Sequence record: PV344601.1
Reading direction: 5' to 3' (one strand)
DNA: 64,000 nt
Origin: Staphylococcus phage RQ1
This document shows, one piece after another, positions 63,021-64,000 of this stretch (its first letter is position 1; each line of letters starts with the position of its first letter). The notes beneath the pieces were generated by a model. That model did no database searches. It had not been told where the DNA came from and saw nothing but the letters and a program-made list of their open reading frames with translations. A program made the translations under genes and the position numbers.

Positions 63021-64000
63021 TTTTCATACTCTTCTATAATGTTCGTTACACATTATACGTTTCTTTTAAAAACTGCTATACATTTCTGTATAGATGAGAC
63101 TATATCACAATCCTTTATGAAAAGGATTCCCACTATTTCGATTTAAGGGATTCTCACCCACGCACTTGCGCCCTACTCCTGTTGACTATTTCAAGTCTAA
63201 AAGGATAGTCGTTGAACGTTCTCACAAACGTGAGCTTCGCTGCTGATTAGCATATGACTTATGTCACTTAGCCTTCCAGTCAATTAAATGGGTTCAGACT
63301 AAATATTACTATTTAGCCCCGCTCTAGTGAACGGCTTCGGCACTAAGACCTGAGATACTGGCTTCAGTAGTACCACCTTGGTTAGCTCTACCTTCTACTA
63401 CGTGAGTGTTTACTACTGCATCGTCCTTGTCATAAATGAAAAACTTTGCAATATGTTTAAATATAAACGTTACTTTATACTCTCATGTTTATTCATGACA
63501 CTAGATTTCTCTACGTGTTCAGACTATATGTTAATTTTAGTTCTGATAAATTCTTCGACATTCTTTTCCCAATAAGGAATAGTTATTAAGTTAATGTTGT
63601 TATTTTTACAATAATCACTTTTTATTTTATCATTAATTTGAGTTTGTTTAAAACTTTCTTTTCCAAAAAGAGAACTTTCTATATAGTGTTGACTTCCTTG
63701 GTATTCAATCAAAGCAACTAAATTATCATCTTCATTGAATACAGCAAAGTCAAAGGGTAAAACTCTCTTGTTTTTACACTCTTCTATTCTATACTGTTCT
63801 TTATGTTTAATATTATTATCATCTAATATACTTCTAACCAACTGCTCGCCTTTACTAGAAGTTTTACAATTAGGACATCTTTTACCAAAGAAAAAATTAT
63901 CTGGAGTAACTTGATATATAAAACCACATTCATTATGAATAATATCAACTTTTGTTTTATTATTTTTATATTCGCTTAGTAAAGTATATTCTTTTCCCAT
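63021..64000 (-). mobile_element. group I intron (3' part in window) interrupting the major tail protein gene. Same family as the polymerase intron and carries a Zn-ribbon nuclease ORF
   Basis: Minus-strand core gttcaacgactatcc..aacaggagtagggc..ggtgagaatcccttaaatcgaaata matches the pol intron core at 26120-26260. Ends ..gaaaag before the exon. Confidence 0.6.
63524..64000 (-). CDS. intron-encoded homing-endonuclease-like Zn-ribbon/PD-(D/E)xK-like nuclease (may extend past the window end)
   Basis: RCPNCK zinc ribbon. LPFDFAV, LIEYQGSQHY and KSDYCKNNNINLITIPY match the core of the ORFs at 30465 and 37770. Confidence 0.55.
   Translation of the reverse strand: MGKEYTLLSEYKNNKTKVDIIHNECGFIYQVTPDNFFFGKRCPNCKTSSKGEQLVRSILDDNNIKHKEQYRIEECKNKRVLPFDFAVFNEDDNLVALIEYQGSQHYIESSLFGKESFKQTQINDKIKSDYCKNNNINLITIPYWEKNVEEFIRTKINI

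Follow-up and report, generated by a model that had tools for sequence, protein, structure and literature searches.

What interrupts the tail-tube gene of Staphylococcus phage RQ1? The 64,000-nt stretch of this phage analysed here (record PV344601.1; hereafter the window) ends, at 63021 to 64000, in a region where the minus-strand frame of the major tail (tail-tube) protein breaks off next to a group I intron core and an open reading frame (ORF) for a putative nuclease. The initial annotation explained this by one intron carrying the ORF. We propose instead that the gene very probably consists of three exons separated by two independent group I introns 118 nt apart: an upstream, nuclease-bearing intron whose 3' part lies in the window (intron A) and a complete intron that has no ORF (intron B). 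The phage is a siphophage of the 6ec/SEP9 group, genus Sextaecvirus, with PT1-4, SA2, PT94, PT1-1 and 6ec as its nearest records; further relatives are designated below by L and a number. The elements themselves are of an ordinary phage kind; it is the gene that is unusually intron-rich.

Exons and introns of the tail-tube gene

As the initial annotation had observed, the tail-tube frame closes at an intron boundary: it opens at 63023, directly behind a TGA. The Val49 codon takes its last base from A63024, and the nucleotide homology of intronless relatives to the window begins at 63024/63023. By tblastn, exon 3 corresponds to residues 50-195 of the intronless 6ec tail protein (N-terminus MASTIGFKRATFFIYDKDDKVEDTYVVEGKANKGGTTEASISGLSAEAVKVYASN...), with residue 50 at 63023, and it ends in a TAA stop at 62579-62577. 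The segment upstream of intron B encodes AKFFIYDKDDAVVNTHVVEGRANQGGTTEASISGLSAEAV, which corresponds to 6ec residues 10-49 (82.5% identity by tblastn) and is 98.3% identical in nucleotide sequence to the intronless alleles of L004 and L006. Both exons are colinear with the 6ec protein. Because this exon 2 lies within what had been taken for a single intron, we place two introns in the region, the motif-bearing one complete and free of any ORF, and the ORF within intron A upstream. Combining exons 2 and 3 with an exon 1 taken from relatives raises the Phage_TTP_1 score from 39 bits (exon 3 alone, profile positions 60-190) to 61 bits (spliced product, 5-190). The gene is the only one for a tail tube in a complete structural module, with the head-tail genes of relatives on one side and chaperones and tape measure on the other. 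Its real product would be a spliced protein of ~197 aa; here and in many Sextaecvirus relatives, the gene is mis-called as several short 'hypothetical' ORFs.

Intron B matches the full Rfam model RF00028 (Intron_gpI, positions 1-253) at 85 bits (threshold 50; E 5e-22). The match spans 63340..63076 (-) in a scan of 62950-64000, with P1 beginning at 63340, and bears out the earlier claim that a group I intron splits the gene. In P1, exon CCGU (63334-63331) pairs with GCGG (63322-63319); the 5' exon ends in U63331, which forms a U.G pair, and the intron ends in G63025, both hallmarks of group I introns. GACUA (63210-63206) pairs with UAGUC (63102-63098) to form P7. We drew an IA2-type structure by hand (P1, P2, P3, P4, P5, P5a, P6, P6a, the P7 pseudoknot, P7.1, P7.2, P8, P9 and P9.1) and aligned the window to four distinct homologues, the introns of PT94, PT1-1, L005 and L012. 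All 80 pairs are standard in every sequence, 14 of them with compensatory changes and 0 broken, compared with 30-45% pairing and at most 3 compensatory pairs in controls whose partners were slid by 1-3 columns. P7.1 (UCCU/AGGA with GACU/AGUC) and P7.2 (GCGC-AAGU-GCGU), which mark subgroup IA2, are 100% paired; both hardly vary, so that covariation lends these two helices weak support. The intron carries an extra hairpin, GGG(UGAGAAU)CCC, and RNAfold recovers most helices at a z-score of -2.96.

Excision would join GCC GT^A AAA GTG, encoding AEAV^KVYA (^ marks junctions), into the continuous frame of 6ec, L010 and L007. Intron B is absent from these three and from L004, and the exons are fused precisely at the predicted junction; the insertion site reads GAAGCTGTAAAAGT. 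The Ala48 codon is GCC in 5/5 intron-B alleles, where it contributes a C-G pair to P1, and GCT or GCA in 6/6 alleles that do not have the intron. Intron B is thus a group I intron by its anatomy, with self-splicing predicted from its sequence. The initial annotation had put the 5' splice site and exon 1 beyond the window; this holds for intron A, whereas the 5' site of the motif-bearing intron lies inside it, at 63331/63330.

Intron A is probably a larger group I intron of another subtype. It closes in the window with ...AAACAUAUUG^CAAAG and terminal G63449, and its visible part includes the 3' strand of P8 (63542-63531), P7' UAGUC (63526-63522) and the hairpins from P9 to P9.2, with three 3' hairpins present in the RNAfold result. 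The ORF sits in the P8 loop, its last codons and stop doubling as P8 3' strand, J8/7 and P7' (63542..63522). A complete homologous intron occupies the same site in L013 (~1136 nt) and L010. Intron A, exon 2 and intron B follow in the same order in L012, whose ORF region is 99.8% identical to the window, and the 3' tail of intron A is 97-100% identical in L007, L008, L010, L012 and L013. P8 covaries, with UUGAUUUUAGUU/AACUAAAAUUAA in the intron-A type and UUCCUUGUU/AACAAGGAA in the related PT1-4 intron; the P7 GUUCAACGACUAUC core, P7.1 and P7.2 of this type are seen only in the homologues L013, L010 and L012. Exon 1 of L013 and L010 is ATGGCAAGTACAATTGG(A/T)TTTAAAAGAG, that is, MASTIGFKR plus one base (9 codons). 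An exact-match search of viral contigs with the window end found no continuation; L012 and L013 serve as close proxies. By analogy with L013, intron A would be ~1136 nt long in all, and its 5' splice site, together with exon 1, probably lies ~0.6 kb beyond the window. The predicted ligated junction is AAAAGAG^CAAAGTTT, and intronless site a of the L004 type reads TTTAAAAGAGCGAAGTTTTTC.

Table 1. Coordinates of window features, intron insertion sites and homologous junctions
Feature	Position (strand)	Description
Exon 3 (last), major tail/tail-tube gene	62577..63024 (-)	Pfam Phage_TTP_1
Intron B	63025..63330 (-)	Complete group I intron, 306 nt, no ORF, IA2-like
Exon 2, tail-tube gene	63331..63448 (-)	118 nt, codons 10-49, (G)CA AAG ... 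GCC GT
Intron A, 3' part	63449..64000 (-)	Larger ORF-bearing intron, probably group I
Intron-A nuclease ORF	63524..64000 (-)	C-terminal 158 codons + stop
Free-standing paralogue 1	30465..31766 (+)	tblastn E 2e-7; PHROG 4538, 9084; HTH_38, HTH_23, NUMOD1
Free-standing paralogue 2	37770..39011 (+)	tblastn E 6e-10; PHROG 4538, 9084, 559; DUF4379, HTH_7
Polymerase intron	25145..26300 (+)	Group I intron in DnaE-type DNA polymerase gene; LAGLIDADG ORF 25194-26006
Tape measure	53771-60640 (-)	
Tail chaperones	60744-61324 (-)	
316-aa ORF	61355-62305 (-)	Function not known
Insertion site a	R9^A10	
Insertion site b	G29^K30	
Insertion site c	within V49	Intron B
Insertion site d	A57^Y58	
Insertion site e	K/R63^G64	
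Insertion site f'	E103^P104	
Insertion site f	G108^V109	
G-at-minus-1 junction	L013:114-175	
G-at-minus-1 junction	L010:1325-1386	
G-at-minus-1 junction	L001:1700-1760	
G-at-minus-1 junctions	L002:4729-4790 and 5990-6030	
G-at-minus-1 junction	L004:7255-7300	

The intron-A nuclease and its paralogues

The complete intron-A protein, P0001, has 240 aa and is 100% identical over the 158 aa inside the window; an ATG at 64000, considered as a start, proved to be its internal Met83. Pfam returns only sub-threshold matches to DUF2726 and DUF4379, and PHROG places the protein in families 559 (E 4e-52), 9084 ('homing endonuclease') and 7140 ('intron encoded nuclease'). An AlphaFold model based, like the conservation analysis, on 64 homologues (pLDDT 94) comprises two zinc-ribbon modules and, C-terminal to them, an alpha/beta nuclease domain of Vsr-like fold, to which Vsr and the homing endonuclease I-Bth0305I are the nearest solved folds. 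D166, E181 and H187 are invariant; conservation reaches 90% or more at E134, D206 and K209 and at the cysteines of the zinc ribbons. E134, D166, (E181), H187 and D206 are candidate counterparts of the EDxHD active-site residues, among them D196, H213 and D222 of I-Bth0305I. Where that family has N-terminal NUMOD or helix-turn-helix (HTH) modules, the protein holds two DUF4379-type zinc ribbons.

Since its closest solved folds are Vsr and I-Bth0305I, the nuclease belongs, on its modelled structure, with the known EDxHD/Vsr-like family of homing endonucleases, which gains a zinc-ribbon variant; its activity is predicted. It is, as first described, neither LAGLIDADG, HNH nor GIY-YIG but a zinc ribbon joined to a restriction-endonuclease-like domain. 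The label 'non-canonical' is apt in that the protein falls outside those three large families, and overstated in that it represents no new type, given a fold that matches Vsr and I-Bth0305I.

The two related genes that the initial annotation had pointed to elsewhere in the window are paralogues of this nuclease (Table 1). Each combines a zinc ribbon, a Vsr-like nuclease and C-terminal HTH/NUMOD-like modules. A search for motifs near both found no group I core, and the genes look free-standing. At the intron-A site, the same intron backbone, with the 97-100% identical 3' tail, houses two nuclease alleles, that of the window (64000-63524) and that of L010 (1696-2574) and L007. They encode 240 aa with two zinc ribbons and 292 aa with three, respectively, and share 45% protein and 64.8% DNA identity. 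This suggests replacement of the ORF inside a conserved ribozyme.

Intron polymorphism and competing explanations

When the 6ec protein is mapped onto its relatives, seven insertion sites emerge within the first ~110 codons (Table 1). Genomes carry from 0 introns (6ec) to 4 (PT94, L005, L012), in varying combinations. The ORF-bearing intron occurs without intron B in L010 and L007, and intron B occurs without the site-a ORF-bearing intron in PT94, PT1-1 and L005. From exon 3 onward, L010 and the window share 99-100% identity (100% from exon 3b through the next gene); the figure is 93% in exon 2 and 64.8% in the nuclease ORF. L010 has no intron B. An apparent jump in L010 identity from 75% to 99.8% exactly at the intron-B site was rejected; segment by segment, low identity is confined to the nuclease ORF. 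Identity across the locus is mosaic along its length, and this mosaic and the varied intron sets are consistent with introns having been gained and lost repeatedly through homing, co-conversion and recombination. Near-identical phages with different intron sets make this gene a small natural setting in which to study how introns are gained and lost and how ORF-less ones hitch-hike beside nuclease-bearing ones.

Intron packing reaches extremes in PT94 and L012, where an 18-nt exon (ATTATGTAGCACAAAGAG / ...AAAAGG) separates the introns at sites d and e (L002:4420-4750, L012:1320-1640) and a 27-nt exon lies between intron B and the next intron, making these extreme tandem group I introns. In the relatives L004-L009 (~10740-13300), the tape-measure gene is itself split, in at least two places, by group I introns whose ORFs are of HNH or DUF4379 type; the tape measure of the window is one uninterrupted ORF of 2289 aa.

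We propose that intron B excises itself from the pre-mRNA by the standard two-step, guanosine-initiated reaction, which would cleave after U63331 and ligate the exons after G63025. When phages infect the same cell, the intron-A nuclease would presumably cleave intronless alleles of the tail gene near codon 9/10, and repair off the intron-bearing allele would copy in intron A and some of the adjoining exon. For intron B, passive spread is the most likely route, through co-conversion or recombination beside nuclease-bearing introns, or with a nuclease acting in trans.

Five observations weigh against this reading of two group I introns, one of them armed with a homing endonuclease. Rfam scans of the whole 64-kb window, at the gathering threshold and at E<=1, found no Intron_gpI; as the same model gives 85 bits on a 1-kb stretch, we regard these negatives as filter artefacts. 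For intron A, the window yields only a partial 13-bit match, and an Rfam scan of L013 did not detect the intron, because the ORF splits its core. The 5' part of intron A is deduced from homologues, whose ORF regions are 97.5-99.8% identical. Sequence-level searches matched the nuclease to no solved structure. Finally, exon homology for the intron-A type in tail genes puts a non-canonical G, not U, at position -1. Whole-window Rfam negatives, whether with default or 'evalue' filters, are generally unreliable for AT-rich phage introns, and default filters can overlook even an 85-bit intron in a 64-kb scan.

The G at -1 is seen in homologues (L013, L010 and four other sites; Table 1), the window's own 5' splice site lying beyond its end. 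Introns of this type occur at sites a, b, e and f', all purine-rich (RRGRG^), and at five junctions the first intron nucleotide forms the U.G pair of a covarying P1. Across these sites, P1 and exon covary as GAGU/GCUC, GGGU/GCCC, AGAGU/GCUCU, AAGGU/GCCUU and GGAGU/GCUCU. Single-nucleotide shifts of the junction to place U at -1 all fail: they introduce a stop codon (site b) or a frameshift, or leave the intron with a last base other than G. Introns B, d and f have the canonical U at -1, as do the tape-measure introns of relatives and related introns of the myoviruses Remus, PG-2021_27 and HM01. We tentatively suggest, with rather less than even confidence, that the intron-A type is a sub-lineage that splices after a G paired to C, with the U.G pair displaced one position into the intron, and that it may also have hopped among at least four sites within this one gene by changing the target of its guide sequence. 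If true, splicing after G would count among the few natural cases in which 5' splice-site choice departs from the U.G rule.

How intron B came to its present distribution admits another explanation, in which it is an immobile, vertically inherited relic whose occurrence is independent of the intron-A and free-standing nucleases. We consider this unlikely but deserving of weight. Intron B has no ORF, and the phages that carry it (the window, L012 and L005, 95% identical; PT94 and PT1-1, 84%) might represent clades. Descent alone sits poorly, however, with L010, near-identical from exon 3 onward and still without the intron, and with L005 and L012, which share intron B and differ in their other introns; the patchy distribution fits repeated gain and loss by recombination.

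Even if both introns are active, they could be removed together with the 118-nt exon between them, so that the dominant tail protein would lack residues 10-49. The middle exon is short, and PMC11878797 describes such exon skipping where group I introns stand in tandem, in the tail-tube gene of Twort and in a Bastillevirinae polymerase gene. Yet exon 2 keeps its coding sequence across relatives and is found in all intronless alleles, and positions 5-60 of the Pfam tail-tube profile need it, which makes dominant skipping quite improbable. The joint of exon 1 to exon 3, ...AGA G^A AAA GTG, is in frame, and skipping is therefore possible as a minor product.

The original model of a single ORF-containing group I intron, running from 63021 to beyond 64000, could appeal to a ribozyme core and an ORF that are adjacent on the same strand and to a tail frame closed by a TGA upstream of 63023. 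It is refuted by the Rfam match, which is full-length with its own P1, by the separate occurrence of the ORF-bearing and 306-nt introns in L010 and L007 as against PT94, PT1-1 and L005, and by the mapping of a coding segment, 98% identical to intronless alleles, between ORF and core. Nor is there any appreciable likelihood of a decayed tail gene or of introns that no longer splice, given a sole tail-tube gene in an intact module, ribozyme pairs preserved through compensatory changes and the same kinds of intron in the cultured phages PT94, PT1-1 and PT1-4.

Neighbouring genes and known systems

Downstream, the tail-tube ORF ends in ...ACT ACT CCC TAA G, and a threonine-rich ORF (PTTTTTTSSTTTTTTTVAPTTTTTTT...VPNVEL) continues in the +1 frame at 62318-62629 (-). 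From the sequence, CCC_UAA is a candidate for a programmed +1 frameshift that would yield a long tail-tube form with a threonine-rich extension; a sequencing error there is unlikely because L010, an independent sample, is identical at this point. An analogous overlapping pair of coding sequences is annotated in PT1-4, and 6ec has an in-frame acidic extension instead. The 316-aa ORF between the tail-tube gene and the chaperones belongs to PHROG 4417, has no Pfam match and is not found there in 6ec. Its DSD motif (FFMDSDVIV) recalls GT-A glycosyltransferases. We speculate that this ORF, lying beside the threonine-rich tail extension, might point to virion glycosylation.

The initial annotation had assigned the tail intron to the same family as the intron in the window's DNA polymerase gene. 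The latter scores 33.7 bits against RF00028 (E 1.7e-6), follows an exon ending in ...CCTGAT and has its terminal G at 26300; the ORFs on either side carry PHP and pol III alpha domains, with the break at profile positions 103/119, and the intron ORF matches LAGLIDADG_3. The three motifs reported as common to both introns do occur exactly twice each in the window, at 26129/26204 (+) and 63217/63158 (-), with ~0 to 0.09 expected by chance. A third core candidate, TCAAAGACTAT at 15061-15071 (+), resembles the Rfam J6/7-P7 consensus; it lies within a continuous 579-aa ORF, has no Rfam match and was dismissed as a chance occurrence. The three shared motifs occur just as well in the introns of phage K lysK and SPbeta bnrdF, both annotated as intron-interrupted genes, and so represent the general core of this phage intron class. 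In its 3' half, intron B is just 54% identical to the polymerase intron, compared with 65-71% to the introns of K lysK, phiIPLA-C1C and SPbeta bnrdF. Since it is nearer to these, the two introns of the window are not close relatives, and their kinship goes no further than common membership of the broad phage IA2-like class.

With the phage IA2-type introns of K lysK and SPbeta bnrdF, intron B shares the core elements GUUCAACGACUAUCC (J6/7-P7), P7.1/P7.2 with GGAGUAGGG, and GAUAUAGUCU (J8/7-P7'), together with the U.G pair at the 5' splice site and the terminal G. Its extra hairpin is common to the K and SPbeta introns. The T4 td intron, likewise of IA2 type, has this core too. Intron B differs from these introns in its host, a siphovirus major tail protein gene, and in having no ORF.

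I-Bth0305I is the prototype of EDxHD, the sixth recognised family of homing endonucleases (PMC3239194, PMC3984707). Like the nuclease described here, it is encoded by a phage group I intron; its conserved acidic, histidine and acidic residues have candidate counterparts in the nuclease of the window. The nuclease of the window differs in its DUF4379-type zinc ribbons (two, and three in relatives) in place of NUMOD/HTH modules, in an ORF that lies in P8 rather than P5, and in showing no sequence-level match. Other members of PHROG 559, bearing a VSR signature, have been reported from terminase genes of Bastillevirinae (PMC11878797); they likewise reside in phage group I introns and differ in host gene (terminase versus tail tube) and phage group. 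Collaborative homing in trans of ORF-less group I introns has been reviewed (PMC3984707), and ORF-less intron B similarly coexists with a nuclease 118 nt away, in intron A, and with two free-standing nuclease genes; in contrast to the reviewed cases, cleavage of the intron-B site by nucleases of the window is a supposition here.

A classic parallel at the level of the gene is Twort orf142, which PMC11878797, citing Landthaler and Shub 1999, describes as a tail-tube gene with three group I introns and exon skipping. In both phages, several group I introns are packed into a Staphylococcus tail-tube gene with short internal exons. Twort, however, is a myovirus with another tube protein, whereas the gene described here belongs to a Sextaecvirus siphophage among whose close relatives 0-4 introns are distributed over seven sites.

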